Source of the DNA: Gemmata obscuriglobus | GTDB taxonomy: Bacteria > Planctomycetota > Planctomycetia > Gemmatales > Gemmataceae | DNA length: 32,000 nucleotides | Reading direction: 5' to 3' | NCBI RefSeq assembly: GCF_008065095.1 | Contig: NZ_CP042911.1 | Coordinates: 4,800,001-4,832,000, forward strand | Shown here: piece by piece, positions 3,937 to 31,601 of the stretch | Layout: every line of letters begins with the position of its first letter | How positions within the stretch are numbered: position 1 is the first letter of the stretch | Notes under the pieces: model-generated | What the model saw: the letters and a program-made list of their open reading frames with translations, nothing else | The model's database searches: none | Told to the model about the DNA's origin: nothing | Position numbers and translations under genes: made by a program

Positions 3937-5150
3937 CTATCCCAACGGAGGCAGTTCGTGGCCAGGGATGTCCACGAACCAATCGTTGAGATCCGGCAGC
4001 CGATGAACCTCGTCTTCGACCTGCGCCATTTCCTTTTTCGTCAAGCGGACGCCCTTCGGGTAGGCATCGGTCAGTACCTCAACGGTGGGATGCTTGCCGC
4101 CCCAGGTCATCGACCGGGCGAACCCGAGGACCGCTTCGCGGGTGTCTAACAGATCTCCGCCCCAGTGGTTCTCGAGTACCCCCCAGCAGTGCTCGATCGG
4201 GTTGTACTTGCTGTGGTAGGGCGGGTAATACGCCAGCCGCACGAGCCGCCTCCGCTGACGCGCCAAGGCCACCATCCTCTTGAGGAACTGGGTTCGCCGG
4301 CCTTTGTTCTCCGGCCCGTTGTCTTGGTTGATGACCAGTGTCCGGACCCGCGGGAAGCGCGGCTGGTGCTGTACCCACCAGCGGTCCAGGATGTCCACGA
4401 TGAAATCGCTCGTCACCCGCGACGTCGTGAAGTACAGCCACAGGTCGCTGTCACGCGGCAGCAACAGCCCGTAGGGTGTCAGGACCTCTTCGGCCCGGAA
4501 GTCGTGGTCCGCGGCCTTCGTTCGTACTCGGTTCTTGCCCTTGCGCGAGTACGCCCCCACCTGAACACCGGCTTTCGCGTCCAGCGACAGCCGCAGCGTG
4601 TCGGCACTAGCGTCGGCCTGCGGGTTGATCTCCTTCAGCCGTGCGAAGATGGCATCGGTCTGGGGGATCTTTTTTTGGGCACGCACTTGAGAACCTTGGT
4701 CGGGTGGAACCCGAGGTCGTTGAGCTTGGTGCGGAGGGTTCGCGCCTGGGGCAACTGGTCCGCGCGGTACCCCTTCGTGGCGACCAGCTGACGCCGCACT
4801 TCTTCGGCCGTCAGCCGGGTATACAGGCGCAGGGTGCGGAACCGCGGGTCCGCCTGGCTCTGGCTGGTGACGAGGTCCCGGATGTCGGCCAGCAGGTCGG
4901 GCAATCGGTCCTCGGCACGGTGCCGGCCTCGCGCCGAGAACGCGTCGCGGGCCACGACGCCCGAGTTCAGTTCCCGCATGCCCTTGCGGATGGTGACCCG
5001 GTTCCACCCGAACGCCTCTTCGGCTCGGCGTTGACCGCCGGGACCCAACGCACGCACCACCCGGGCCATGAACAACCGTCGTTGCGCCCCGCGCAGATCG
5101 TTCGCCGCCTCGATCAACGCGGGCGTGAGTGTCTCGCCGAACGGAATCAC
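3937..5150 (-). CDS. ISAzo13-family DDE transposase, encoded in two overlapping frames (-1 shift at an A7 run)
   Basis: The N-terminal frame is 4635..5150 (MIPFGETLTPALIEAANDLRGAQRRLF...KVLKCVPKK). The C-terminal frame ends at 3937 (KKIPQTDAIFARLKEINPQ...LVINQDNGPENKGRRTQF...YYPPYHSKYNPIEHCWG). The two frames overlap at CCCAAAAAAAGATC (minus strand, 4670-4676). Confidence 0.8.
4670..4676 (-). promoter_or_regulatory. A7 slippery run joining the two transposase frames (programmed -1 frameshift, transcriptional slippage, or an inactivating indel)
   Basis: The 0-frame reads GTG CCC AAA AAA AGA. The -1 frame reads CAA AAA AAG ATC CCC CAG and continues the conserved transposase body. Confidence 0.45.
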
Positions 5151-5320
5151 AGCGACCTCCTGCGGGTACCACCGAGAAGGTCATCCTACGATACGAGAAT
5201 TGGGATAGTTATTTTTTGCCGAGTCCCTAAGCTCGACTGATGCCGATTCTGGGGCCGTCCGTGGTGAGGTAACATGAGGGTTGCTGAAGCTCCCATGGCC
5301 CTCGCCCACGGACGGCTGCC

Positions 5321-5817: not shown

Positions 5818-6706
5818 GTGACTGTCCCATATGTGAGATTTATGCCACCGTGTGGTATTGAAACTCGGCGTCGCCCCCTTTCGGCTCAAGCCGGTTGAGC
5901 ATCAGGTGGATCATGGCCAACTTGACGAACGCCTCCGACGACCGCACCGTCTTCTCCCGGTCCTTGGACAACCGCCGGCACGTCCCCAGCCAGGCGAACG
6001 TCCGCTCCACCGTCCACCGCCGCGGTAACTTCACCCACCCCTTGGCCCCGTCCGGGCGGCGGACGATGACCAGCTCCCACCGGGCGTTCGTCTCGACCCA
6101 CTCGTACAGGGCGTAGTTGTGGTACTTGCGGTCGGCGAACACCCGGCGCACCTTCCCCATCGGTTGCTCGTCCAGCCGGCCGAACAGTTCGGCCGCCGCC
6201 TTGGCATCATCGACGCTCGCGGCCGTCACCAGCACGGCCAGCAGCAACCCCATGGAATCCACGAGGATGTGCCGCTTCCGCCCGTCCACGTTCTTGGCGT
6301 TGTCCCGGCCCCGCTCCTCGCCGCCGGAGGTCGTGTCCACCGACTGGCTATCCACGCTCGCGGTCGTCCGGGGCGAGTACGGCCTCTCGGCGGTGCGGAC
6401 CTTTTTGCGGAGAAGGTCATGGATCGTGTCGCGGGTGCCGTTGTGTCGCCACTCGTCGAAGTACCGCCCGACCGTGGACTTGGGCGGGAAGTCCTTGGGC
6501 CGGTACCGCCACTGGCAACCGGTCCGCAGCACGTAGAAGACCGCGTCGGTGACGTCCCGCAGGGCGGTGGTGCGGGGACGGCCGCCGGGGTACACGGGGA
6601 TGTGTGGCTCGATGAGCCCCCACTGCTCGTCGGTCACGTCGCTCGGGTAGGATTGGGTTCGCATGGACCATTCTACCCACCCAACCGCCACATATGGGAC
6701 AGTCAC
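5818..6706 (-). mobile_element. IS5-family insertion sequence (about 0.89 kb) nested in the IS701-like element
   Basis: Terminal inverted repeats GTGACTGTCCCATATGTG (5818-5835) and CACATATGGGACAGTCAC (6689-6706). It is flanked by TAA (5815-5817) and TTA (6707-6709). Removing 5818-6709 restores the host frame. Confidence 0.85.
5840..6664 (-). CDS. IS5-family DDE transposase
   Basis: ATG 6664 gives MRTQSYPSDVTDEQWGLIEPHIPVYPGGRPRTT...TGCQWRY...VDSQSV...HILVDSMGLL...ADRKYHNY...RWTVERTFAWL. This is the typical IS5 DDE_Tnp_1 layout. The track start at 6706 would lie inside the IR. Confidence 0.9.
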   Translation of the reverse strand: MRTQSYPSDVTDEQWGLIEPHIPVYPGGRPRTTALRDVTDAVFYVLRTGCQWRYRPKDFPPKSTVGRYFDEWRHNGTRDTIHDLLRKKVRTAERPYSPRTTASVDSQSVDTTSGGEERGRDNAKNVDGRKRHILVDSMGLLLAVLVTAASVDDAKAAAELFGRLDEQPMGKVRRVFADRKYHNYALYEWVETNARWELVIVRRPDGAKGWVKLPRRWTVERTFAWLGTCRRLSKDREKTVRSSEAFVKLAMIHLMLNRLEPKGGDAEFQYHTVA

Positions 6707-7096: not shown

Positions 7097-8572
7097 CTGT
7101 ACTTTCCGCGAATTTGTAGGTCGGGAGGTGATGGTGGGTTCGGAGTAGACGAGTGCCGGCCCGTCCGGGAGGATGGCGTTACCACACGACCAGCCACCCC
7201 GAACGGACACGGCCATGCCATCTGCGCATACTCCGTCCCCGCGTTGCCACTGGTTTTCGGTTCTGGCCGGGGCACTGGATCGGCGCTCGGGTCGGCGGTT
7301 GGCGGCCCTGTTCCTGGGTGTGCTGCTGGCCCGCGGGCGGCACGCCCTGAGTTGCTGGATTCGGGCGGCCGGATTATCGTCCCAATACCGCCGCTGTTAC
7401 CCCACCGCGGCCGCGGTCGGGCGCCGGGTCGAGCGCATCGCGACCCGGTTGTTGGTCGAGATCCTCAAGCCCCTGGTGACCGGGCCGCGGGTGGTGCTGG
7501 CGTTGGACGACACACCGACCGCCCGGTACGGACCGAAGGTACAAGGGGCCGGGGTGCATCACAACCCGACACCCGGGCCGGCCGGGAGCGCATTCGTGTA
7601 CGGGCACGTGTGGGTGGTGCTCGGGTTGCTGGTGGCGCATCCACTGGGTGGGGTCGTGGCTCTGCCCCTGTTGGCCCGGTTGTACATCCGGAAGGCGAAC
7701 CTGGGCGCGGTGCGGGCGACCGATCGGCCCCGGTTCGCCACCAAGCTGGCGATGGCCGTTGACCTGGTGCGGTGGGCGCACGGATGGCTGAAGATGTGGG
7801 GCATGGCGGTGTGGGTGGTGGCCGACGGGGCGTACGCCCAGGGGCCGGTGCTGAAGCCGCTGCGGAAGCTCGGGGTGACGGTGGTGAGCCGGCTCCGCCG
7901 GGATGCGGCCCTGTGCTCGTTACCGCCCGCGCGGGAGCCCGGGCTGCGCGGGCGCCCGCGGGTGTACGGAACGGCACGGATCTCGTTGGCCAAGCGGGCC
8001 GGGCACAACGGCGGGTGGAGCACCGGCACGTTCACCGTGTATGGGAAGACCGTCGAGAAGCGGTACAAGACGTTCGTGGCCACCTGGCGCCCGGCCGGTG
8101 GGGCGATCCGGGTGGTGCTGGTGGACGAGCCCCACGGATGGGTCGCGTTCTTCAGCACCGACCCGGGCGCGACGGTGACCGACATCTTGGAACGGGTGGC
8201 CGACCGGTTCACCCTGGAGACGTGCTTCCGGGATCTCAAACAAGTCGCCGGGACGGGCCAGCAACAGGTGCGCGGGGTGCCGTCGAACGTCGGGTGCTTC
8301 CACCTGTGTGCATGGGCGCACACCCTGACCGAGGTGTGGGCCTGGGCTCGGAACGCGGACGAGTTGGTGGGGCACCGGTCCGCGTCCCCGTGGGACGATC
8401 CGAGCCGGCGCCCGAGTCACGCGGACAAGCGCCGGGCCTGGCAACACGAGCTGTTGGCCGAGGAGATTCGGGCCGTTGTGGGCGAGCACCACGACCACAC
8501 GAAAATCCGCGACCTCGCCTACCGGTGCTTGGACTTGGCCGCGTGAGCACGGCTGATTCGCGGAAAGTACAG
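7097..8572 (+). mobile_element. second IS701-like (IS4 superfamily) insertion sequence, 1476 bp, nested
   Basis: 17-bp inverted repeats CTGTACTTTCCGCGAAT (7097-7113) and ATTCGCGGAAAGTACAG (8556-8572). It is flanked by a 6-bp direct repeat CCTGGT (7091-7096 and 8573-8578). Confidence 0.8.
7173..8546 (+). CDS. IS701-like DDE transposase (apparently intact)
   Basis: A 457-aa ORF. Candidate DDE residues lie in VVLALDDTPT, VWVVADGAYA and RFTLETCFRDLKQ. An alternative start is ATG 7215. Confidence 0.85.
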   Translation: MALPHDQPPRTDTAMPSAHTPSPRCHWFSVLAGALDRRSGRRLAALFLGVLLARGRHALSCWIRAAGLSSQYRRCYPTAAAVGRRVERIATRLLVEILKPLVTGPRVVLALDDTPTARYGPKVQGAGVHHNPTPGPAGSAFVYGHVWVVLGLLVAHPLGGVVALPLLARLYIRKANLGAVRATDRPRFATKLAMAVDLVRWAHGWLKMWGMAVWVVADGAYAQGPVLKPLRKLGVTVVSRLRRDAALCSLPPAREPGLRGRPRVYGTARISLAKRAGHNGGWSTGTFTVYGKTVEKRYKTFVATWRPAGGAIRVVLVDEPHGWVAFFSTDPGATVTDILERVADRFTLETCFRDLKQVAGTGQQQVRGVPSNVGCFHLCAWAHTLTEVWAWARNADELVGHRSASPWDDPSRRPSHADKRRAWQHELLAEEIRAVVGEHHDHTKIRDLAYRCLDLAA

Positions 8573-8578
8573 CCTGGT

Positions 8579-9032
8579 GCCGATCCGCTGGGTATTCGTC
8601 CGGGACACGACGGGCACACACCGGGACGAGTACTTCTTCACCACGGACCTCGGCCTGACCGTGTCGGCGGTCATCGCGATCTACTGCGGCCGTTGGAATA
8701 TTGAGACCACGTTCCAAGAGATGCGCGCGGAACTGGGCCTGGAGACGACCCGCGGGTGGCGCGAGAAGACCGTGTTGCGGGCGGCCCCGTGCCTGTTCGG
8801 GTTGTACACCGTGGTGGCCGTCCTGTTCCACACCCTGCCCGCATCGAAGCGAACCGGGGCCGTGGAATGGCCGGGCAAGACCGTCACAACCTTCTCCGAT
8901 GCGTTGGCGGCGGTCCGGCGGTGGCTCTGGGCCGAGGCACTTTTGCCACAGGCCGGGCAAACCATGGGTCTTGATAAACTCCCGGAGCCCGTACGCGAGC
9001 TCTTGCTTACCACGCTCGCACCCGCCGGATAA
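8579..9032 (+). pseudogene. IS701-like transposase, C-terminal fragment
   Basis: The fragment reads PIRWVFVRDTTGTHRDEYFFTTDLGLTVSAVIAIYCGRWNIETTFQEMRAELGLE. It joins ...GHGLV in frame once 7097-8578 is removed. Confidence 0.7.
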
Positions 9033-17787: not shown

Positions 17788-18095
17788 ATAAACTCTACCG
17801 CGCCGCGTTCTTCGTTCTGTCGCAAAACCTCGTCCACGAGGACGCACTCACGATGCGCGCCCGCGACGAGCAGCCGATCACGTTCGCCGAGTGGGGCTAC
17901 CTGGGCAAGGGGAAGTTCCAGCGGCGCGATTTCCACTTCGATTTCCTCACACAGTCCTCGACCTTCAGCGCGGAAGGTTCGCTCTTCGCCGACCTCGGCA
18001 AGCACGAGATTTTTACACCTGATAAGACGTACCCACCAACAACCGTAGGCGAACTAGCAATTGCCTACGGCGTTACGGCGAAGAGGGCCGTATGA
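17788..18095 (+). pseudogene. SAM-dependent DNA methyltransferase-like gene, 3' part
   Basis: KLYRAAFFVLSQNLVHEDALTMRARDEQPITFAEWGYL...[17 protein letters not shown]. Deleting exactly 16556-17787 joins it in frame to ...LTASDEL. Its TGA overlaps the next ATG (ATGA at 18092-18095). Confidence 0.55.
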
Positions 18096-19693
18096 GCATA
18101 CAAGTCGACTTCGGGCTAAAGGGCCGCAACCCGGACGTGCTGACGTGCATCGCGAACCTCTCCAATGACGAGGTGTTTACTCCGCCTACGTTCGCCAACC
18201 AGATGCTCGACACCCTGGAAGCGGCCTGGGCGTCAGACCACAACGGCGCAATCCTGTGGGCCGACCCGAAGGTTCGATTCCTCGACCCGTTCACCAAAAG
18301 CGGCGTTTTCCTGCGCGAAATCGCTAGTCGACTCATCAAGGGTTTAGAAGGGTTAATCCCAAACCTACAAGCGCGCGTCGATCACGTCCTGACGAAGCAG
18401 GTATTCGGCATCGCCATTACGCACCTGACGAGCTTGCTCGCGCGGCGCAGTCTGTACTGCTCAAAGCACGCAAACGGTAAGCACTCCGTTGCAAAGTCAT
18501 TCACCACTGACGCCGGCAACGTCTGGTTCGAGCGGGTCGAACACACCTGGCAAGGCGAAAAGTGCCGCTATTGCGGGGCCAACGAGCGCGACTACGAGCG
18601 GGGTGACGGCCTGGAGTCTCACGCCTACGCGCTGCTACACACTGACGATCCTAAATCGCGGCTGGCCGAGATATTCGGAGGGGACATGCAGTTCGATGTC
18701 ATCATCGGCAACCCACCTTACCAACTGGGCAGAGCGGCGGGGACTCTGTAGGCCGTTTTGCGATGCCGATCTATCAAAAGTTCGTTGAGGTCGCCAAGAG
18801 CCTTGACCCGCGATATGTGGTGATGGTCACCCCCTCACGCTGGTTCGCGGGCGGCCGTGGACTTGAGGAATTCAGGCGGGAGATGCTTTCTGATCGGCGT
18901 TTACGTTGCTTGATCGACTACCCGGACTCACGAGAGGTTTTTGCGGGCGTCGATATCGCTGGTGGGGTTTCCTATTTTCTGTGGGACTCGTCTTGGAACG
19001 GTAAGTGCGCCGTTACCAACATTTACGGCAGCATCGCCAGCCCGCCGCTCAGTCGCCACTTGGACGAGTACGACATCCTTGTCCGCTACAACGAAGCGAT
19101 CCCAATACTTGAAAAGGTTCTCTGCTCAACTTCTGATGGTGCATTTGAAAGCTTGTCGAGTCAAGTTGCACCGATTCAGCCTTTTAGCATCCGAACGAAT
19201 TATCGCGGTGAAACCAGTAGCGACGGGATGGTCAACCCAGTGCTCCTCTACCAGAACGGCGGCACCAGTTTCATCGAGCGCGGTGCGATTCCGCGAAACG
19301 CTGAGTGGGTCGATCAGTGGAAGGTGTTTCTGTCTGGAACCTCAGCCGAACACGGTGGACAGGCAGACAAGAATGGTACCCGGCGAGTCTTTTCTTTGAT
19401 TTTGATCGGCAAACCTGGGACAGCTTGCACTGAAACGTATCTTGTCGCAGGCCGATTCGACACCGAGGCTGAAGCTACGAACTTTCGTGCTTATCTCCGC
19501 ACGAGGTTTGTTCGATTTTTCGTTTCGCTCCGAACGAACACGCAGCACTTGTACAGCGAGCGATTCGCCTTCGTTCCACGGCTTCCGATGGACTGCGAAT
19601 GGACCGATGAAGCCCTGTATAAGAAGTACAGACTTACGCAAAGCGAGATCGCGTTCATCGAAAACGTGATCCGGCTGATGCCAGAGGGTGACG

Positions 19694-19701
<8 letters not shown>
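18092..19701 (+). pseudogene. Eco57I-family N6-adenine DNA methyltransferase (Mod-like), split by a frameshift just after the NPPY motif
   Basis: ORF 18092..18751 carries [33 protein letters not shown] (motif I) and [11 protein letters not shown] (motif IV), then stops at TAG 18749. ORF 18763..19701 (MPIYQKFVEVAKSLDPRYVVMVTPSRWFAGGRGLEEFRREML...) continues the same family 12 nt later in another frame. Confidence 0.8.
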
Positions 19702-22231
<2,530 letters not shown>

Positions 22232-22313: not shown

Positions 22314-22368
22314 TGGCCAAGGTGGGACTCGAACCCACACAGGTTGCCCCGCTCGATTTTGAGTCGCA
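22314..22368 (-). tRNA. 3' fragment of tRNA-Leu(CAA), from the anticodon stem to the discriminator; likely att remnant, not a functional gene
   Basis: The minus strand reads CGACTCAAAATCGAGCGGGGCAACCTGTGTGGGTTCGAGTCCCACCTTGGCCA. It shows anticodon loop CUCAAAA, a GNRA-capped long variable arm, T-arm GTGGG-TTCGAGT-CCCAC, and acceptor 3' strand CTTGGCC plus A. There is no D-arm and no matching 5' acceptor strand (GGCCAAG) upstream. Confidence 0.7.
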
Positions 22369-22459
22369 ATTAAGATCGTTGGAATTGCTTGTTTTTCAAG
22401 GGTTTCGTGGCAGTCGGGATCGGGAGGCGACTATTCAACCTCTTGCAGGAGACCCGACA

Positions 22460-23497
22460 ATGGCCCGTCAGAACGCCCCCTGGTATCGTGCGGTCCGGGA
22501 CTGCTGGTACGTGCGGTTCGAGGGCAAGTTGACCAGTCTCGGTGTGAAGGGGAAAGGGAACCAAGAGGCTGCGAAGGCGGCTTTCGAGAAGCTACGGACC
22601 ACACCCAAACCACCCCCGATTACCGCCGGACCCGTCCTTCTCCCCCAAGCGTTCGCTCAGTTTCTCGTGGCGTGCAAACTGTCCCGAAAACCGAACACGG
22701 TGGCCCGGTACGAGTACGACGCTGGGGATTTTGTCAACGACCACCCCACCCTGGAACCTGCTCAAGTGACAGCAGACCACATCCGACAGTGGCTCGCAGA
22801 TCTCGACGTGGGGCAGACCACCAAGGCCATTATGCTCAGGTCAGTGTCCGCGTTCTTCGGCTGGCTCGTGAAGGAAGACAAACTCGAAAAGAACCCCGTG
22901 AAGAAGGTGACCAGACCGAAGACAGCCAGCCGCTCGGACAAGGCCCTGATCTCGGAGGCGGACCACAAGCGGTTGCTGGAAGGGGCGAGCAGAGACTTCC
23001 GTGACGTGTTGGTGGTGCTCCACGGTACGGGGTGCAGGCCGGGGGAGTTGCAACAGATCACTGCCGAAACCTTCAACTACAAAGATCGTGTGGTGGTGAT
23101 TACGGAACACAAGACTGACCACACCGGAAAGCCCCGCCCAGTGTACCTCACTCCGGAACTGGCTGACCTGCTCCACAGCAAACTCGTCAAGTACCCCACC
23201 GGACCGCTGCTGAGGGGAAACAAGGGAGTGCCCTGGACCGGAAGAGCAATCACCGAGTCGATGAAGAAGTTGAGGAAGAAGACCGGGGTGAAGGCCATCG
23301 CTTACGGGTACAGGCACACGTTCGTAACTGACGGCTTGAAGTCCGGACTCAGTAACTCCCAAGTGGCCGCTCTGGTCGGGCACACCACAACGGCAGTGAT
23401 CGATCGGTTCTACAGCCACTTGGGAGCAGCAGGGGACGCTCTGAGGGCAGCATTGAAATTCCGCGAGAAGCCCAAACCGGACGATCAAGCAGCGTAG
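22460..23497 (+). CDS. tyrosine-type site-specific integrase
   Basis: ATG 22460 with AGGAG 8 nt upstream. It has an N-terminal SAM-like domain (KAIMLRSVSAFFGWLVKEDKLEKNP). Catalytic residues lie in HGTGCRPGEL (R), YGYRHTFVTD (HxxR) and LVGHTTTAVIDRFYSH (H, Y). Confidence 0.9.
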   Translation: MARQNAPWYRAVRDCWYVRFEGKLTSLGVKGKGNQEAAKAAFEKLRTTPKPPPITAGPVLLPQAFAQFLVACKLSRKPNTVARYEYDAGDFVNDHPTLEPAQVTADHIRQWLADLDVGQTTKAIMLRSVSAFFGWLVKEDKLEKNPVKKVTRPKTASRSDKALISEADHKRLLEGASRDFRDVLVVLHGTGCRPGELQQITAETFNYKDRVVVITEHKTDHTGKPRPVYLTPELADLLHSKLVKYPTGPLLRGNKGVPWTGRAITESMKKLRKKTGVKAIAYGYRHTFVTDGLKSGLSNSQVAALVGHTTTAVIDRFYSHLGAAGDALRAALKFREKPKPDDQAA

Positions 23498-24291: not shown

Positions 24292-24446
24292 CGTAAAGAA
24301 CTCCGAGAAGTAGCTAAGCAACAGAGAGTGCCAACTCCAGCCTCAGCATTACACCATCATCGATCTAACAAATACACTAGCCTCTTTCGTGGAAACTGGC
24401 CCAAAAAGAGGGGCATGTTCTTTCGGCGAGACGTGCATTTCCAGAA

Positions 24447-24457
24447 GGGGGGGGGGG
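24447..24457. repeat. G11 homopolymer tract
   Basis: There are eleven consecutive G at 24447-24457 (AGAAGGGGGGGGGGGATAG). The tract lies in the intergenic region about 125-165 nt upstream of the AT-rich orphan gene on the minus strand. Confidence 0.95.
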
Positions 24458-24746
24458 ATAGAGAACGCCTCTCGCCCCCACAACACCCATAGGTTTCAAC
24501 GCTGGGCTCTGACCGCAAGCCACAAGAATCTTACACAAATCATTACGAAAATTGCACTTGCGATTATTTTCAGGAAAGTACCCAGAATCTTTACTCACCC
24601 TGTATTCCACCCACTCTCAGATACAGAAGTAAGCAACCGGCCCTCTGCCCCGTTTCCTCTTTCTTGTCCCCAGCGAGCACCCAACCGCTGCTGCCCACCA
24701 CGACCACACAGGACAGTAACGCTCGCGTCGAGTTCTCCCGTCGAGG

Positions 24747-25358
24747 TTACTTCTTGCCGGGGGTGAAGGATTTCAACTCCTGCGGAACACAGCCATCCAG
24801 GTCGTAATGCACCTTGACCGGCCCGATCCCACGAGCGTACCAAAAGACGTTATTTCGAGGAGGGTCAATAGCTTTCCCGTTGAGTTCGGTGACTTTGACC
24901 GTGACGTTGGTCGCCAGGAACGTTCCCGCGGGCACCTTCACCTTTTCTGTCCGACCCACGGTAGCACGACCGGTCTGAGCAACGAAATTGTCTTGAAGTT
25001 GATGCTTCACGTCCCAAGAATCGTCGGCCCGAACGGGGAAACGAAGCAGCATCTCGTCAACTCGTGTCGTGGTCAACTTCCGGTAGATCACGTTGCTGCC
25101 GGACACCTCATAAGTCAGTTCCCACGGCTTGTCCACAGTGCTCATCTGCACCCGCACGGTCAGCAGCTTGCTCGTGGGCAAATCCTCGACCTCTACAATC
25201 TCTTCAACGCGATCCACGCATTTCACATCAAACACCCACTTCGTCCCCACCTCTGTCGGCCAGAACGGTTCGTCTTTCATGAGGTGCTTGGGAACGGGTG
25301 CAGCCTCCACCGCGGGCAGAACAGCGAGGACGATCGCAGCCAGTGGAATCCACCGCAT
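24747..25358 (-). CDS. secreted hypothetical protein, paralog 1 (ends LKSFTPGKK)
   Basis: ATG 25358 with AGGAGG 5 nt upstream. The signal peptide is MRWIPLAAIVLAVLPAVEAAPVPK. It shares FWPTEVGTKWVFD, VKVPAGTF, WYARGIGPVK and LKSFTPGKK with the 28805..29362 product. Confidence 0.7.
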   Translation of the reverse strand: MRWIPLAAIVLAVLPAVEAAPVPKHLMKDEPFWPTEVGTKWVFDVKCVDRVEEIVEVEDLPTSKLLTVRVQMSTVDKPWELTYEVSGSNVIYRKLTTTRVDEMLLRFPVRADDSWDVKHQLQDNFVAQTGRATVGRTEKVKVPAGTFLATNVTVKVTELNGKAIDPPRNNVFWYARGIGPVKVHYDLDGCVPQELKSFTPGKK

Positions 25359-25444
25359 GGGAACCTCCTGAAAGACCTCAATAGCGTACCCGAGCCGCCG
25401 TCCGACCTCCACCGAAATCGCCTGCACAGCCCTTCTCGCCCCTC

Positions 25445-25483
25445 CCCCTACCTTTCTCCCAAGACCTACTTGCATCTCAATCC
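25445..25483 (-). repeat. 38-bp motif copy A (faces paralog 1 gene)
   Basis: The minus strand reads GGATTGAGATGCAAGTAGGTCTTGGGAGAAAGGTAGGGG. It lies 86 nt upstream of ATG 25358. Confidence 0.85.
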
Positions 25484-25581
25484 TCGACGATAGCCAACTC
25501 ACCCTCACCCGATCGGTAGTTTAGCCCGACCCGTACTGACGGAGTGGAGTGTGTAAACGGGAGTGGAGGACTGAGAGAAGA

Positions 25582-25620
25582 GGGTCGAGATGCAAGTAGG
25601 AGTTGGAGGAAAGATAGTAG
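25582..25620 (+). repeat. 38-bp motif copy B (inverted partner of A, 98-bp spacer)
   Basis: GGGTCGAGATGCAAGTAGGAGTTGGAGGAAAGATAGTAG. It lies 50 nt from the stop of the minus-strand gene 25671..26054. Confidence 0.8.
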
Positions 25621-25670: not shown

Positions 25671-26054
25671 TCAAGTGTGTTTGCGGTCTGCCGGCTTGAG
25701 TACCTGTAAAGCATCCCGGATCTGAGTCAGCTTCTGCGGGCCGAACTCGATGATGAGGTTGCGGATGGCTTCCGGGATTTCGCTGCTGGTGGCGGTGCAG
25801 AGGTCGTCCAGGATCTGGCGATGAACCGGACCGAGCCCGACCGCAACTCCCCTCTTCCGGAGCGTGTAGTAGAAGGTGAGGATTCGCCGGATGCCATCGG
25901 CCGGAAGCTCGTCGTGGGCCATGCAGTCTTCAATGAACTCGATGGCCGTGTCCACGTCGAGCCGGGTGGTGTACTGCGAGGAGGCGGTGGTGCCGGCTTC
26001 CTGCTTCTTCTTGAGCGATTCCAGGTGGCCGATCATTTCGGTGTTCCGCGGCAC
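25671..26054 (-). CDS. hypothetical protein
   Basis: ORF 25671..26111. GTG 26054 is preferred because AGGAG lies 7 nt upstream. ATG 26036 and TTG 26111 are alternatives. The sequence is protein-like (IGHLESLKKKQEAG...RRILTFYYTLRKRG...) and I recognise no motif. Confidence 0.5.
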   Translation of the reverse strand: MPRNTEMIGHLESLKKKQEAGTTASSQYTTRLDVDTAIEFIEDCMAHDELPADGIRRILTFYYTLRKRGVAVGLGPVHRQILDDLCTATSSEIPEAIRNLIIEFGPQKLTQIRDALQVLKPADRKHT

Positions 26055-26156
26055 GGCCAATCTCCTGGTGCGGAAGGGCTCAGGCCATAAACCTACTAGA
26101 ATTTTCAACACCAGTCAAGTCGCTCCCCTTCAACCGAATCCAGGGGAAGAGGCCAA

Positions 26157-26822
26157 TCACTCGCTGAGGGCGTCGATCAAGTCCTTGAGTTCGTCCGCAG
26201 AGTACGTCGCCAGCAGCGATTTCAGGGTCCGCACCACGGCGAGTGTCGAACTGCCTCCGGGCTCTGAAGTCTGGGGAGCAGCTTTGGGAGAGGGTGCAGG
26301 AACTCGGGCCGGGGTAGAGGTCGGAGGGGCCGGCGACTTCCCTTCGCTCCACTCCTTCTTGACCACCTGCTTGTACGTGCTGAAGTTATTGGGGCTGATC
26401 TCAACCCCGTACTCCTTGGCGAGCAGGGGAACTCCGGTGCTGGCGGTCAGGTCGGGGTTGGCTCGCAGGGCGGCTCGGACGGCATCCATCTTCGACATCG
26501 TACTCACAGGTTTGGTCTCCGGTTGGGGTGCAGGTGTTACAGAAGGGGGTTCTTCGGTCTCAGGCTCTTCACTCAGTAGTCCGAAACTGGGTGGCACGGG
26601 TGCGGGTTCTGATTTCGGAGTGGCGGCAGCAGAGGGGGTGTAACTCTTACCCATCGAGCGGATCTGTGCGGGTGGTGGCTCTTCGTACCGCTGCTTGGCC
26701 GGCTTTTCAAGATCTGCGTCTTCCGTTTGTCCGCCCCACAACCCCGTCTCGAACCCGAACTCGTCCCGCTCGACCTTCTTCTTGGGTGGAGGGGGTGAGG
26801 GTTGCCGTTTGCCCTTAGCCAT
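26157..26822 (-). CDS. Pro/Glu-rich hypothetical protein, divergent from the serine recombinase
   Basis: ATG 26822 with GGAG 6 nt upstream. Low-complexity P/E/S linkers flank two small helical-looking modules, MSKMDAVRAALRANPDLTASTGVPLLAKEYGVEISPNNFSTYKQVVKK and LAVVRTLKSLLATYSADELKDLIDALSE. Confidence 0.6.
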   Translation of the reverse strand: MAKGKRQPSPPPPKKKVERDEFGFETGLWGGQTEDADLEKPAKQRYEEPPPAQIRSMGKSYTPSAAATPKSEPAPVPPSFGLLSEEPETEEPPSVTPAPQPETKPVSTMSKMDAVRAALRANPDLTASTGVPLLAKEYGVEISPNNFSTYKQVVKKEWSEGKSPAPPTSTPARVPAPSPKAAPQTSEPGGSSTLAVVRTLKSLLATYSADELKDLIDALSE

Positions 26823-27099
26823 CAGATCTCCATTGCGGGGCTGTAGCCTCTGCTAACACTCTAAACACAAAAACTGAGATGGTCAAGGAAGTGGAAGTGG
26901 AGAAGCGTTTTATCCCGAACCGGGCACCCGACGATCGACCCCGACCTTATAATCGACCGATTCCCAATACCATTCGGCGAGAGGAAGTCGCGGGAAGACA
27001 CGAGGTTATCAAGCAGGCCCAAGAATTCCACTCGCACCGCATTGAGATTGATATCACTTTTATATCCTACCAGGAGCCCATCCCCTATCAGGTAGTTCC

Positions 27100-28653
27100 A
27101 TGCGTAAGGCTTTCTCCTACGTTCGCTTCTCCACCCCCGATCAGGCTAAGGGAGACTCTTTCCGCCGTCAAACCGAGTTCAGTCAGAAGTACGCGGAGAA
27201 GCACGGGCTGACCTTGGACGAGAGCACTTCCATTCGGGATCTCGGGGCGTCTGCTTTCCGTGGGTCGAACGTCAAGGAGGGGGCTCTGGCTGCTTTTCTC
27301 GAACTGGCTCGGTCGGGGAAAGTGCCTGTGGGATCGGTGCTGATTGTCGAGTCGCTGGACCGCCTGTCGAGGGATCAAATCCGCCCAGCCTTGCAATTGT
27401 TCTTGAGCATCTTGGACTCTGGTGTATCGATCGTCACCGTTCATCCCGAGCGAGAGTACACACCTGCTGACCAAGATCCCATGACCCTGATCGAGCCTCT
27501 GATCTACTTCTCCCGAGCCCACGAAGAGTCGGCCACCAAGAGCAAACGGATCAGCGAGAACTGGGAGCAGAAGCGAAAAGCCGCAGTCGAGAAGAAGACC
27601 CCGATGACTTCCGTTTGCCCCAAGTGGCTGGAGGTGAAAGAGGGGAAGTTCGTACCGGTGCCCGAGCGGGTCGAGTTGGTCAAGAGGATTTTCAGACTGA
27701 CTCTGGAGGGGATGGGCACTTATTTCGTGATTAAGAAGCTGACCGAAGAGGGGATCAAGGGTTGGGGGCGAAACGGGAAGTGGAATACAGCCTACGTGCG
27801 AATGATCCTGGTCGATCGTCGGGTGTTGGGAGAGTACCAACCGAAGAAGTTGGTCGAGGGGAAGATGCAGAATCATGGGGAGCGGATACTGGACTACTTC
27901 CCTCGCGTGATTTCGGATCAGGACTTCTACGCGGCTCTTGGAACGATCAAGAAGCGGAAGGGTAAGGCTGGTAGGGGAGGAGCTTTCAGGGAGAACGTGC
28001 TGTCAGGTCTGGTGTACAACGCTGAGGACGGAAGCTCGATGGCCTACGGAACTCACCGCCACCTCAAACCCTTCCTGAGCAGTACTGCGAGTTACAACAG
28101 CACCCCTCACCCGAAAGGCCGATCGTTCCCGTACCAATTGGTGGAGGAGGCGGTTCTGTCACTGCTCCCCGAGTTGCAGGTCACGACAGAAGCGGCTTTC
28201 GGCTGCGTGGATCGAATTGCGGAGTTGGAGGGGCGTATCGGCGAACTGAACGTGAAGATCGAGAAATTATCAACCTCATTGATGAACTGCCCAGCGGTGG
28301 CCTTTGACGAGCTACTCACCGTATTTGAGGCACTCGGCAGGGAGCGGAAGGAACTGGGGAAACAACTGGAGCAGGAGAAGCGGGCAGCAGAAGCACGAGC
28401 ACCACAACCGCCCGTCGAGCCAAAGACGCTGATTGAGGTTCGCAGGGCATCAGTGGGGGAGTGCCGGAAGTGGCTGAATGCAAAACTGCGTAACGGAATA
28501 CAGGTGCTGGTCGAACGCATCACCATACGGATCGAGAAGCGGTCGCGGGTCGAGAAGGCGGCACGCATTGAGGTCAAACTCAAAAGTGGGGAGTGCCGAT
28601 CGTCCACCGTGCTTCACCCACCCCCACCGCTCCAGACAGAGGCGAGAGTCTAG
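27100..28653 (+). CDS. large serine recombinase (517 aa)
   Basis: MRKAFSYVRFSTPDQAKGDSFRRQ carries the catalytic Ser motif and LIVESLDRLSRD belongs to the resolvase domain. A recombinase-domain region follows (KRISENWEQKR...CPKWL...YFVIKKLTEEGIKGWG...WNTAYVRMIL) and then a C-terminal coiled coil (ELEGRIGELNVKIEKL). Confidence 0.9.
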   Translation: MRKAFSYVRFSTPDQAKGDSFRRQTEFSQKYAEKHGLTLDESTSIRDLGASAFRGSNVKEGALAAFLELARSGKVPVGSVLIVESLDRLSRDQIRPALQLFLSILDSGVSIVTVHPEREYTPADQDPMTLIEPLIYFSRAHEESATKSKRISENWEQKRKAAVEKKTPMTSVCPKWLEVKEGKFVPVPERVELVKRIFRLTLEGMGTYFVIKKLTEEGIKGWGRNGKWNTAYVRMILVDRRVLGEYQPKKLVEGKMQNHGERILDYFPRVISDQDFYAALGTIKKRKGKAGRGGAFRENVLSGLVYNAEDGSSMAYGTHRHLKPFLSSTASYNSTPHPKGRSFPYQLVEEAVLSLLPELQVTTEAAFGCVDRIAELEGRIGELNVKIEKLSTSLMNCPAVAFDELLTVFEALGRERKELGKQLEQEKRAAEARAPQPPVEPKTLIEVRRASVGECRKWLNAKLRNGIQVLVERITIRIEKRSRVEKAARIEVKLKSGECRSSTVLHPPPPLQTEARV

Positions 28654-28684
28654 ATGCAAGTAGGTGTTGGGAGAAACGTATGGG
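28646..28684 (+). repeat. 38-bp motif copy C (overlaps the recombinase stop codon, faces paralog 2 gene)
   Basis: GAGTCTAGATGCAAGTAGGTGTTGGGAGAAACGTATGGG. The TAG at 28651-28653 is the recombinase stop. The copy lies 120 nt upstream of ATG 28805. Confidence 0.85.
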
Positions 28685-28804
28685 TGGCGTGAAGTCCGAG
28701 TCCACGAGGATGGTGAAGTTTGAGATCGGCGACACCCGCCATTTCACAAGTAGCACCCCCTGCCCCGCTCGGGTAAACTGTCGGAGCCCCTCTTGGAGGC
28801 CCTC

Positions 28805-29362
28805 ATGCGACACGTACCGCTGATCGTCCTCGGCCTCGCCCTCCCGACAACCGCCGCTCCGGTCCCTAAAGACGCGGGCAAGAACCTGATCTACTTCCCG
28901 ACCGTCGTGGGTGCGAAGTGGGTGTACGAGGACGAGCGGGGCGGTGAAGAGGCGGTCGAAGTGTCGGCGGTCGAGAAGGACGGGGACGAGTTGGTGGTGT
29001 CTCGCAAGGGGGTGGACGGTACCAGCACGCGGTACACCCAAATGATCGTGTCCACCAAGGGGCTGAGGCAACCCAAGGACGCTTTCAACGACAAGCCCGA
29101 GCCGGTGTGGGTGCTGAAGTGCGGTTTACGGGCCGGAGAGTCGTGGGAAACGCCTTCGGGAAAAAGAACCCTGCACGAGGCGGAAGAGGTCAAAGTGCCG
29201 GCGGGTACGTTCAAGGCTCTGCGGGTGGTGGTGGAAAGCGGAACCGAGACGCTCACCTCGTGGTACGCACCGGGGGTCGGGGAGGTGAAGCGGACGCAGA
29301 AGCGGTGCGGCACGGTGACGGTGATTCGCTCGCTCAAGTCGTTCACACCCGGCAAGAAGTAG
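28805..29362 (+). CDS. secreted hypothetical protein, paralog 2 (ends LKSFTPGKK)
   Basis: ATG 28805 with GGAGG 6 nt upstream. The signal peptide is MRHVPLIVLGLALPTTAAPVPK. It shares YFPTVVGAKWVYE, VKVPAGTF, WYAPGVGEVK and LKSFTPGKK with paralog 1. Confidence 0.75.
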   Translation: MRHVPLIVLGLALPTTAAPVPKDAGKNLIYFPTVVGAKWVYEDERGGEEAVEVSAVEKDGDELVVSRKGVDGTSTRYTQMIVSTKGLRQPKDAFNDKPEPVWVLKCGLRAGESWETPSGKRTLHEAEEVKVPAGTFKALRVVVESGTETLTSWYAPGVGEVKRTQKRCGTVTVIRSLKSFTPGKK

Positions 29363-29415
29363 CACACCCACAACACCAGGAGATTGCCATAAGCACCAGC
29401 CGCCGACCGAGAGTC

Positions 29416-29856
29416 TCACACGCCCGGTCCGTCCGCTGGTTCCCGACTCCCAAGAGACGCCGCATCATCACGCACCACCCCCTTCCGACCAACAAAGGCC
29501 GCAACCAACAAGAGCGAGAGCCCCGTGACGTGCAGCAGGGACACGACAGCGGCAACGACGACCTGCCACCGCCGGAACGCTTCGAACCCCAGATTCTGAT
29601 CTTTGACAGAACTGAAGAGGTAGCCGTGAGCCAGTAAGGCCAATACCGAGGCCAGGAACAGGAGGCCACACGCGACCAGTACGATCACGGAGGGTCTGGG
29701 GTGACGACCGAGTTGGACCAACGAGATGATAAAGCCAATCAGGTACACCGCCAGCAGCGGGGCGTGATACGGGAGTTGCTGAAGCACGTATTCCAGCATG
29801 GTCACGAGAGACGCCCTCCGCAGCCGAACCAGTGTGGAACTGCACCGCTGCATCAT
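29416..29856 (-). CDS. small integral membrane protein, hypothetical
   Basis: ORF 29416..29925. Candidate starts are ATG 29856 and ATG 29799. It has three or four hydrophobic helices (LLAVYLIGFIISLV, VIVLVACGLLFLASVLALLA, VVVAAVVSLLHVTGLSLLLVAAFV). Confidence 0.5.
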   Translation of the reverse strand: MMQRCSSTLVRLRRASLVTMLEYVLQQLPYHAPLLAVYLIGFIISLVQLGRHPRPSVIVLVACGLLFLASVLALLAHGYLFSSVKDQNLGFEAFRRWQVVVAAVVSLLHVTGLSLLLVAAFVGRKGVVRDDAASLGSREPADGPGV

Positions 29857-29922
29857 CCCTGACCCAACCGCTCTTGGCAACTGCCATTCCCGAGTACCGT
29901 GCAGACCGACCGCTACCAAAAG

Positions 29923-29961
29923 CAATAAGCTTCTCCCAACTCCTACTCTGCATCTAGACTC
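29923..29961 (-). repeat. 38-bp motif copy D (faces the 29416 membrane-protein gene)
   Basis: The minus strand reads GAGTCTAGATGCAGAGTAGGAGTTGGGAGAAGCTTATTG. It has a one-base insertion relative to the other copies. Confidence 0.8.
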
Positions 29962-29986
29962 TCAGCCCCTACGGATCAAGGATCTG

Positions 29987-30024
29987 GCGTCTAGATACAA
30001 GTAGGTGTTGGGAGAAACTTAGAG
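29987..30024 (+). repeat. 38-bp motif copy E (inverted partner of D, 25-bp spacer)
   Basis: GCGTCTAGATACAAGTAGGTGTTGGGAGAAACTTAGAG. It lies 19 nt from the stop of the minus-strand gene 30044..30409. Confidence 0.85.
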
Positions 30025-30043: not shown

Positions 30044-30409
30044 TCAGTCCCACACCGGTGGTCGGTAGGCCATCACGGAAGCTGCGGTCAAGAGTGCGGC
30101 CAGAGCGGTGCCGAGAACGAACAAAGTCCAACGGGCTCCAACCCCTCCCGTGCGAAACACCAGCAGCCACCCTTCAACCCAAGGACCAGCCCCGAAGCAC
30201 AAGTTGGCACCCAGCCCGTACACCACGAGGTAGATCAGGAACTCAACGTCAGACAGCAGTGACCAGTCGCGACCCACGGCCAGGGTGAGCACCACGACCG
30301 CAGCCAGAATCAGGTTGTACGCCAGCCGGAACCGCTCCCAGGACAGGAACACGGCCCTTGCCGAAGGCTCACTCGCCGGGCTCTCCTGCCACCAATCGGG
30401 CTCGCTCAT
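30044..30409 (-). CDS. small integral membrane protein, hypothetical
   Basis: ATG 30409 with GGAGG 5 nt upstream. The sequence MSEPDWWQESPASE is followed by four hydrophobic helices. Confidence 0.55.
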   Translation of the reverse strand: MSEPDWWQESPASEPSARAVFLSWERFRLAYNLILAAVVVLTLAVGRDWSLLSDVEFLIYLVVYGLGANLCFGAGPWVEGWLLVFRTGGVGARWTLFVLGTALAALLTAASVMAYRPPVWD

Positions 30410-30539: not shown

Positions 30540-31382
30540 CTACCGGCCACAACCTGGACAAACAAAAGCCCTTGAGCGATCGTAAACCGTACCACAGTAC
30601 CAACAGGATGCCACTCGTGGTTGCCCAGACCCTTTAGAACTCCCCACCACCATCATTACGATCAGGAGAACCACTGTGAGCGATGCCAGTACCTTTCCGA
30701 CTTGCAGAGCACCCTCAGTCCACGAACAGCCTCCCGCCCAAGCTACTGCACACGAAACGAGAACAAAACCACATCCGAACAGGACAAAGAACAGTAATAT
30801 TTTAGCCCGCCTAAACTGATCCGGGTCACGGTGACCGAGCAACAAACCGCCCCCACAAACCAACAGGAGAGCGAGCAACCCACCAACAAACCACAAGCCA
30901 AGATTATTGGCCTCTTCGCTTTCTACCTTTGCCTTTCGGGTTCTGACCCTCCCCCGCACTTTCGGTTGTTGCTCCTTCTCGGCACCGTCTACAAGCTCGA
31001 ATTGTACCGGGAGCACCAGCCGCCCTGGAACTGTACGTTCCTCGGGGGACTGCGAGGTGGAATAAGACTTAACTAGAATCCCGAGTCGAGGTGAGCTTGA
31101 CGGAGACGGCACGACAATCGCCTGACCACATCTCAGACAGTCAACTTCCGCACCAGCACTCTGACCATCCACCTTCAACTCCATTAAACAGGACGGGCAG
31201 AGGAACTCGATTCGGGGTTTGGGTGAAGGAGCGGGCGGTTGCGGCGGTGGGGACACTGGTGCGGCGGAAGCACCCGGAACGGTGACCGCGTTACTGCACT
31301 TCGGACAGGCAACCGTCGCACCGGCCCGATCGGCACCGAACGTCAGGCGTACTTTGCAGGCGGGGCAGTGGACAGTGGGCAT
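30540..31382 (-). CDS. zinc-ribbon membrane protein, hypothetical
   Basis: It has three CxxC...CxxC zinc-ribbon units (CPACK...CPKC, CPSC...CLRC, CWYC...CPGC). These flank a proline-rich linker and three or four TM helices. Confidence 0.65.
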   Translation of the reverse strand: MPTVHCPACKVRLTFGADRAGATVACPKCSNAVTVPGASAAPVSPPPQPPAPSPKPRIEFLCPSCLMELKVDGQSAGAEVDCLRCGQAIVVPSPSSSPRLGILVKSYSTSQSPEERTVPGRLVLPVQFELVDGAEKEQQPKVRGRVRTRKAKVESEEANNLGLWFVGGLLALLLVCGGGLLLGHRDPDQFRRAKILLFFVLFGCGFVLVSCAVAWAGGCSWTEGALQVGKVLASLTVVLLIVMMVVGSSKGSGQPRVASCWYCGTVYDRSRAFVCPGCGR

Positions 31383-31550: not shown

Positions 31551-31589
31551 CCCCTACCTTTCTCCCAACCCCTACTTGCATCTCGATCC
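31551..31589 (-). repeat. 38-bp motif copy F (faces the zinc-ribbon gene)
   Basis: The minus strand reads GGATCGAGATGCAAGTAGGGGTTGGGAGAAAGGTAGGGG, 36 of 39 identical to copy A. It lies 168 nt upstream of ATG 31382 and 12 nt after the stop at 31602. Confidence 0.85.
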
Positions 31590-31601
31590 CCGGCCCCCGG
31601 C

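Follow-up and report, generated by a model that had tools for sequence, protein, structure and literature searches.

A 32,000-nucleotide stretch of the Gemmata obscuriglobus genome (contig NZ_CP042911.1, positions 4,800,001 to 4,832,000; hereafter the window, to which coordinates refer unless another sequence is named) carries six copies of an asymmetric repeat of roughly 40 bases. The same motif is present in at least eight copies in the genomic island to which this part of the window belongs, and in 17 copies in the corresponding island of Gemmata algarum. The copies, lettered A to H in G. obscuriglobus, surround the gene of a large serine recombinase, LSR1, and a set of small gene modules, among them a convergent pair, par2 and TM1, that lies between copies C and D (Table 1). 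We infer that the copies are substrates for recombination, with a large serine recombinase encoded by the island as the acting enzyme, and that they form an array of sites delimiting gene modules in an island at tRNA-Leu, shaped over evolutionary time. We hold this reading tentatively, at a probability of about 0.45, and recombination at the sites today is hypothetical.

Anatomy of the repeated site

Twenty-one motif copies were aligned in register. On the left, the block TCKAGATGCA varies little or not at all and the hexamer AGTAGG is the same in all 21 copies; on the right, TTGGGAGAA(AGGTAG) is nearly invariant. Between AGTAGG and TTGGGAGAA, at the midpoint of a conserved core that spans -10 to about +23, lie two positions of 0.58 and 1.04 bits, so that the near-invariant arms TCKAGATGCAAGTAGG and TTGGGAGAAAGGTAG enclose a hypervariable dinucleotide in an asymmetric site of about 33-40 bp. 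Read from A to H, the central dinucleotides in G. obscuriglobus are TC, AG, TG, AG, TG, GG, AG and TC. Over both islands the centres present are TC, AG, TG and GG, with one longer AAT, and GA, CT, CA and CC never occur. Every copy in the two islands joins a left arm to a right arm, and neither island holds a dyad site made of two left arms (attB-like) or of two right arms (attP-like).

Serine recombinase sites are described as a 2-bp centre that is not read by the enzyme, flanked by two recognised arms, the dinucleotide setting both compatibility and polarity (PMC3783163; PMC3936721). With its invariant arms around a hypervariable central dinucleotide the motif therefore resembles such a site, and it looks like one with the anatomy expected for serine recombinase crossover, the variable pair being the presumed crossover point.

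Distribution of the copies

The motif is not a chance recurrence. A 24-nt core allowing up to three mismatches matches the window five times against an expectation of 0.00, and a 17-nt degenerate core six times against 0.06. When the motif pattern was scanned against one genome per species from 185,579 species, the only return was G. algarum JC673, contig 1, at 136-176 kb. A viral collection gave no match, and the two matches of a metagenome scan were one and the same unrelated sequence with a single partial motif match. All copies are intergenic and sit at the gene or operon boundaries of small modules, and their orientation agrees with that of the downstream gene in only about half of them.

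The order of orientations from A to H is - + + - + - + +, with the LSR1 gene among them; G (+, centre AG) and H (+, centre TC) lie within 9 kb past the end of the window. A and B form a tight inverted pair whose arms are separated by 94 nt. D, the most deviant copy in the G. obscuriglobus genome, stands back to back with E, their centres being 56 bp apart.

The island and its recombinases

The window is 100% identical to G. obscuriglobus CP025958.1, and the G. algarum island region was joined from five retrieved pieces. At the left end of the island 53 nt from the 3' part of tRNA-Leu(caa) are exactly duplicated (22314-22366) beside a tyrosine integrase gene (22460-23497), and in G. algarum the intact tRNA-Leu (L003 6733-6813) forms the right end, about 37 kb from the partial copy. 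The whole motif array thus lies inside a tRNA-Leu genomic island, and the motif-bearing regions of the two species are one orthologous island. The island's tyrosine recombinase scores 40 bits against an integron-integrase cut-off of 265. Because the 53-nt tRNA-Leu attachment (att) repeat at the island ends accounts for this enzyme, serine recombinases are left as candidates for the internal sites; we have accordingly set the tyrosine integrase aside as the enzyme of the array, as an unlikely candidate, not an impossible one.

The gene for LSR1 ends in the array itself, its stop codon TAG (28651-28653) falling within the TCTAGA of copy C. In the AlphaFold model of LSR1 (mean predicted local distance difference test score, pLDDT, 83) strands at residues 305-344 and helices at 367-432 are followed by a C-terminal β-sheet, a predicted arrangement of a β-rich, zinc-ribbon-like region and then a long coiled coil. 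All the elements of large-serine-recombinase architecture are found (catalytic domain, αE helix, recombinase domain, zinc ribbon with coiled coil), with the caveat that the zinc-ribbon-like region lacks zinc-binding cysteines and gives no Pfam Zn_ribbon_recom match. Foldseek searches with the model returned as best matches complexes of full-length serine integrases with att sites (E 2e-17 to 1e-13), whereas Gin was matched over the catalytic domain only (E 0.03); a sequence search of the PDB with LSR1 gave no match. By its modelled fold LSR1 is an integrase-type large serine recombinase and not a Gin-type invertase of about 190 aa.

At its right end the G. algarum island encodes a second large serine recombinase, LSR2, whose zinc ribbon is canonical, and here too a motif copy (L003 5303-5347, -) is found 45 nt past the stop codon. 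The proximity of copies to the 3' ends of both recombinase genes favours the view of the motif as a recombination site. LSR1 itself is lost from G. algarum through a clean 1.6-kb deletion that takes the gene and its upstream region (window 26991-28591; L005 about 6202-6204) and spares the last 62 nt of the open reading frame (ORF) and copy C.

Ten gap positions distinguish the 2008 draft contig ABGO01000147.1 (L001/L014) from the complete genome. They split LSR1 into ORFs of 122 and 390 aa and give par2 a spurious 5' extension (228 aa), and they are probably sequencing errors.

Comparison of assemblies and species

Orientation was compared at the level of assemblies and contigs. Across A to E G. 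algarum is 92-94% identical to G. obscuriglobus, and apart from the 31-nt D-E spacer the two islands are collinear over their whole length. This spacer is the only inversion found: it is 26/31 identical as the reverse complement, does not align directly, and appears to have carried the left arms with it. Nucleotide homology between the species stops within E and restarts within H. At two places where G. obscuriglobus has one copy, G. algarum has two direct copies with a module of its own between them, 5.1 kb long in one case and 1.7 kb in the other. The differences between the species, that is the homology limits at E and H, the extra modules and the D-E spacer, thus coincide with the sites, as would be expected of an array that recombination had shaped. 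A further candidate inversion in G. algarum, with H' and the site at island coordinate 24463 as its ends, found no support: the left arm is common with that of G. obscuriglobus H, but the flanks are not homologous.

Logan contigs common to at least 20 sequencing runs are unbroken from F to the island att repeat, and break only at F (L015, L016, L018, L019) and at the 53-nt att repeat. The break at F lies around the common 36-mer GGATCGAGATGCAAGTAGGGGTTGGGAGAAAGGTAG, and that at the att repeat falls exactly 30 nt into the 53-nt repeat. Both breaks have the geometry that an exact repeat would produce in an assembly graph with k=31, and the one at F is therefore probably due to another exact 36-nt copy elsewhere in the genome, a simpler explanation than heterogeneity in the population.

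On the preferred reading of an array of recombination sites, a large serine recombinase of the island would, over evolutionary time, have inserted, removed, replaced and occasionally inverted modules by way of the sites, and par2-TM1 would be one such module, which all available data show in one fixed orientation. Were crossover to take place at the variable dinucleotide, the direct copies C and E would be partners in the excision of par2, TM1 and D, and inversion would be expected for the inverted combinations of D with B, D with G and A with H. Excision between C and E would leave the chromosomal scar GAGAGTCTAGATGCAAGTAGGTGTTGGGAGAAACTTAGAG and the circle junction GGCGTCTAGATACAAGTAGGTGTTGGGAGAAACGTATGGG, and an inversion between C and D would give the junctions GAGAGTCTAGATGCA+AGTAGGAGTTGGGAGAAGCTTATTGC and GAGAGTCTAGATGCAG+AGTAGGTGTTGGGAGAAACGTATGGG.

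Evidence against recombination and competing explanations

Several observations weigh against this reading. The arms lack dyad symmetry and the unit is not palindromic. Integrase-type recombinases with a coiled coil normally recombine attP with attB and not identical hybrid sites (PMC3783163). The relatives of LSR1 at 28-52% identity, which are found on phage-like contigs and often at contig ends, have no comparable site arrays: the contig of the closest (L002, 52% identity) holds no repeated motif, three further contigs (L007-L009) show an ordinary phage-like context, in each of which a small gene converges on the 3' end of the recombinase gene, and among 80 viral loci with LSR1 relatives four have 12-mer repeats (two short palindromic, two locally clustered) and none has a comparable asymmetric array. 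Neither a recombinant junction nor an alternative arrangement of modules was seen in the assemblies, the contigs or the two species. The direct copies around the two G. algarum-specific modules have unlike centres (AG/GG and AG/TC), so that a single crossover at that dinucleotide would not simply account for these modules. Decay confined to one lineage is seen in several copies (B in G. obscuriglobus, G' and F' in G. algarum), and by this comparison of sequences selection on the sites is therefore not obviously strong.

The one inversion that did occur has a plausible cause without a recombinase, namely template switching or gene conversion by way of hairpins. Of the five tight inverted pairs of G. 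algarum, four (island 4653-4823, 7535-7635, 24384-24512 and 28216-28333) are near-perfect palindromes, with identical centres and with arms that match beyond the consensus, and the two tight pairs of G. obscuriglobus are not homogenised. This suggests hairpin-driven gene conversion in one lineage, and it too counts on the negative side.

The best-surviving competitor, which we nonetheless consider rather unlikely, holds that the motif is a repeated binding site, such as an operator or insulator of an island regulator, or an RNA or transcript-boundary element, or else a local selfish repeat, its proximity to a recombinase gene being incidental. Such a role would fit the intergenic position of all copies at gene and operon boundaries, the lack of any recombinant arrangement, the decay of some copies in one lineage only and the relatives of LSR1 that have no such arrays, and the island does encode an HTH_3 regulator; an asymmetric core of 33-40 nt with exactly two hypervariable central positions would, however, be unusual for an operator or promoter. 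A promoter or terminator is in any case unlikely, as the orientation fits the genes in only about half of the copies, the motif contains no sigma-70-like hexamer pair, and the single copies C, F, G and H can form no hairpin. This last point also counts against an RNA element, although many copies form tight inverted pairs that could fold as RNA or DNA hairpins. In an Rfam scan of 24.5-32 kb no known RNA family was found, the D/E hairpin alone matching a microRNA precursor model far below threshold. Nor does the motif behave like the repetitive extragenic palindromic (REP) or bacterial interspersed mosaic (BIME) elements or the miniature inverted-repeat transposable elements (MITEs). It is confined to one island, with matches in G. 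algarum to 136-176 kb of one contig only, where REP is genome-wide; the unit is no palindrome; and its tight pairs occur in both the -/+ and the +/- arrangement, unlike a MITE with its defined ends. That the breaks in homology between species fall within copies likewise speaks against a motif unconnected with recombination.

We also considered an array of many sites run by one large serine recombinase, in which the central dinucleotide wires the partner sets, a 'serine-integrase shufflon' or cassette array. Its sets would be A and H (TC), B, D and G (AG), C and E (TG), and F with an unseen copy (GG), and through them one enzyme would drive a defined network of inversions and excisions of modules for envelope proteins. 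We regard an arrangement of this kind as unlikely; the use of identical hybrid sites by a coiled-coil, integrase-type enzyme is unlike the behaviour of characterised serine integrases.

The least probable proposal is that the copies are inert attL/attR-type scars of serial cassette integration by a serine integrase, C and D being cassette ends that would excise rather than invert. The integrase-type fold of LSR1, the identity of the C and D outer arms (15/15, as for a dyad attB), the differences in module content between species and the resemblance of serine integrase attL/attR to inverted repeats of an asymmetric hybrid site (PMC3783163) speak for it, yet arm-aligned attL and attR need reverse-complementary centres, and as GA, CT, CA and CC never occur and dyad attB- or attP-like sites are lacking, with plus and minus copies that do not pair cleanly, we reject it.

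The C-D segment

Within the array the initial annotation singled out the 1.3-kb segment between C and D. It proposed a switch after the model of Mu gin/G and P1 cin/C, in which LSR1 would flip the segment and so bring par2 and TM1 by turns behind the transcription unit of the recombinase. As a description of the DNA it was accurate. The outer arms of C and D (28644-28658 and 29949-29963) are 15/15 complementary and the inner arms (28659-28681 and 29925-29947) 87% complementary over 23 nt; the two enclosed genes are convergent and complete, each 66-130 nt inside its bounding copy; and the left repeat is fused to the 3' end of the recombinase ORF. The supposed two-site anatomy survives in part: the repeats are inverted, non-random and built like serine recombinase sites, but C and D are only two of at least eight copies.

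The switch itself we consider very improbable, even though a serine recombinase gene ends in one of the two inverted copies and one inversion between motif copies, that of the D-E spacer, did occur in evolution. C and D are probably a poor recombination pair, because their centres are mismatched (TG against AG) and D has one extra G (GATGCAgAGTAGG) in the invariant core, between the blocks GATGCA and AGTAGG. The enzyme, with its predicted integrase-type fold and coiled coil, is not an invertase of about 190 aa. In either orientation of the segment each inner gene would be co-directional with the gene upstream of it (LSR1 on the left, TM2 on the right), so that an inversion would produce no clean on/off switch. 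The segment has the same orientation in CP025958, in the ABGO01000147 draft (99.9% identical), in the Logan contigs of the 20 or more runs and in G. algarum. A single orientation was one of the outcomes that the initial annotation had named as refuting the switch, and at the level of assemblies this is what the comparison gave.

Expression of the inner genes by read-through from the recombinase gene, on which the switch would depend, also appears unlikely. Between the two species par2 differs by 22 nucleotides and two amino acids, with a ratio of nonsynonymous to synonymous substitution rates (dN/dS) of 0.04, and by this measure is under strong purifying selection although G. algarum has lost LSR1 and its upstream region, in a deletion that is undated. 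TM1 has a promoter-like element, TTGCCA-17-GATGAT (29880-29852), upstream of it and inside the segment, and the stretch of 66 nt that separates D from the start of TM1 is conserved at 65/66 positions in G. algarum. Selection on par2 without LSR1 and a conserved promoter-like element before TM1 are what make read-through unlikely; both genes have GC content of the coding type at third codon positions (GC3), and they appear, as far as their sequences indicate, to have expression signals of their own.

The N-terminus of the par2 product resembles a signal peptide, and the protein matches DUF3108 weakly, with a Pfam score of 22.7 bits that stays below the cut-off of 27. The gene is paralogous to a core Gemmataceae gene adjoining skp/lpxC, and its homologues in other Gemmata are ordinary core genes. 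In run SRR5887567 contigs (L019, L025) break within par2 (29009-29031) with a 23-nt overlap, possibly through low coverage, a variant or an insertion.

Comparison with known systems

The likeness to Gin, Cin, Hin and Pin (Mu G, P1 C, Salmonella H, e14 P) lies in a serine recombinase gene beside a segment between inverted short sites, inversion of which would put other sequence downstream of the fixed flanks. In Mu G and P1 C it is variable (tail-fibre) gene ends that are exchanged. Gin, Cin and Hin are enzymes of about 180-200 aa, a resolvase catalytic domain with a C-terminal helix-turn-helix, where LSR1 is a 517-aa integrase-type protein. Their sites are two 26-bp dyads, against 8-17 copies of an asymmetric 33-40 bp unit here; their segments hold a promoter or alternative parts of genes, read from a constant region outside, against intergenic sites and complete genes; and both of their orientations occur in populations or relatives, against the one seen here at assembly level. 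Systems of this type also use, in cis, a recombinational enhancer that depends on Fis. The parallel with Mu gin/G and P1 cin/C that the initial annotation drew for LSR1 and its sites is on these grounds weakly supported.

The R64 shufflon (Rci, sfx) and p15B Min offer a likeness in their many asymmetric sites in both orientations, their segments and the recombinase gene at the edge. Shufflons are driven by the tyrosine recombinase Rci and exchange alternative 3' ends of pilV; Min uses a small invertase on tail-fibre gene ends. Where a shufflon has three or more sites in both orientations beside a dedicated recombinase gene, at least eight copies are found here with LSR1. Reordered segments or alternative C-terminal exons are not seen, however, the islands being collinear but for the 31-nt spacer, and the modules are unrelated whole genes over 15-33 kb.

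With the att sites of serine integrases (phiC31, Bxb1, Listeria A118/LI) the system shares the domain order and predicted fold of LSR1 and a site of about 40 bp, against about 40-50 bp in those systems. It departs from them in having no distinct dyad attP and attB, all copies being of the same hybrid type, in the many copies within one element and in the zinc-ribbon region of LSR1 without cysteines; compared with those systems, no directionality factor was identified for LSR1. Integron arrays (IntI, attI, attC) resemble it as diverse small modules of mostly unknown function between repeated recombination-type elements on a mobile island, with a module content that differs between related genomes, but here there is no IntI, the repeats are not imperfect palindromes of the attC type, their orientations are mixed and the modules lie on both strands. 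If activity were shown, the array would be a new variant of known site-specific recombination systems.

Neighbouring modules

The products of the modules are secreted DUF3108-like proteins, small membrane proteins, and LRR and HEAT proteins (Table 1). Some of them differ between the species in part of their length. In par1 the signal peptide is conserved and the mature part differs. zn280 and a 329-aa protein of G. algarum (island 7697-8686) share the zinc-ribbon N-terminal part and differ in the C-terminal part, which has three membrane segments in G. obscuriglobus and one, with a soluble domain, in G. algarum.

Table 1. Coordinates of the motif copies, recombinase genes and neighbouring features (window coordinates, except LSR2)
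Feature	Position	Strand	Description
Island left end	22314-23497	+	tRNA-Leu(caa) 3' partial copy and tyrosine integrase gene
par1	24747-25361	-	secreted paralogue, weak DUF3108-like match, 34% identical to par2; downstream of copy A
Motif copy A	25446-25492	-	motif profile; centre TC; upstream of par1
Motif copy B	25571-25618	+	motif profile; centre AG; three right-arm deviations
p146	25671-26111	-	between copy B and LSR1; 92-94% identical in G. algarum
p221	26157-26822	-	between copy B and LSR1; 92-94% identical in G. algarum
LSR1	27100-28653	+	517-aa large serine recombinase; Resolvase and Recombinase domains (Pfam)
Motif copy C	28636-28683	+	motif profile; arms TCTAGATGCAAGTAGG / TTGGGAGAAACGTAT; centre TG; holds LSR1 stop codon
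par2	28805-29362	+	secreted-type small protein; 189-aa gene in CP025958; alternative TTG start at 28793
TM1	29416-29856	-	146-aa membrane protein, 3-4 hydrophobic segments
Motif copy D	29923-29967	-	motif profile; centre AG; 1-nt G insertion; four right-arm deviations
D-E spacer	29959-29989		31 nt between the TCTAGA hexamers of D and E
Motif copy E	29976-30024	+	motif profile; centre TG; back to back with D
TM2	30044-30409	-	121-aa membrane protein, E-F module
zn280	30540-31382	-	N-terminal double zinc-ribbon region and three hydrophobic segments, E-F module
Motif copy F	31553-31595	-	motif profile; centre GG
LSR2 (G. algarum)	L003 3432-5258	+	608 aa; Resolvase, Recombinase and Zn_ribbon_recom domains; 22% identical to LSR1

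Short GAAGTG / GTGAA repeats, in places as tandem GTGAA runs, are found upstream of LSR1 (26880-26907) and beside several sites. They recur at window-equivalent positions 41180-41225, at L006 250-275, and in the left flanks of two sites, H and the G. algarum site at island coordinate 23524. Two insertion sequence (IS) transposase genes, an Eco57I-like methylase divided between two ORFs and an 847-aa T5orf172/ResIII protein precede the island (3937-5184, 7173-8546, 18092-22231), in a neighbourhood rich in IS and of the defence-island type.

Implications

A literature search found nothing relevant on Gemmata inversions or on shufflons driven by large serine recombinases. Should the sites be inactive relics or regulatory repeats, what remains is ordinary: a repeat family local to a mobile island, and a phage-type integrase left behind there. 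Either way, evidence at the level of reads would be needed before a Mu-G-like switch around par2 and TM1 is put forward again. Active sites would make this a natural example in which a large serine recombinase handles many sites within one element, with specificity conferred by the central dinucleotide, a principle so far exploited in synthetic biology, in orthogonal att pairs, and not described in nature. Through the array a planctomycete mobile island would then have a novel means of varying its set of secreted and membrane proteins.

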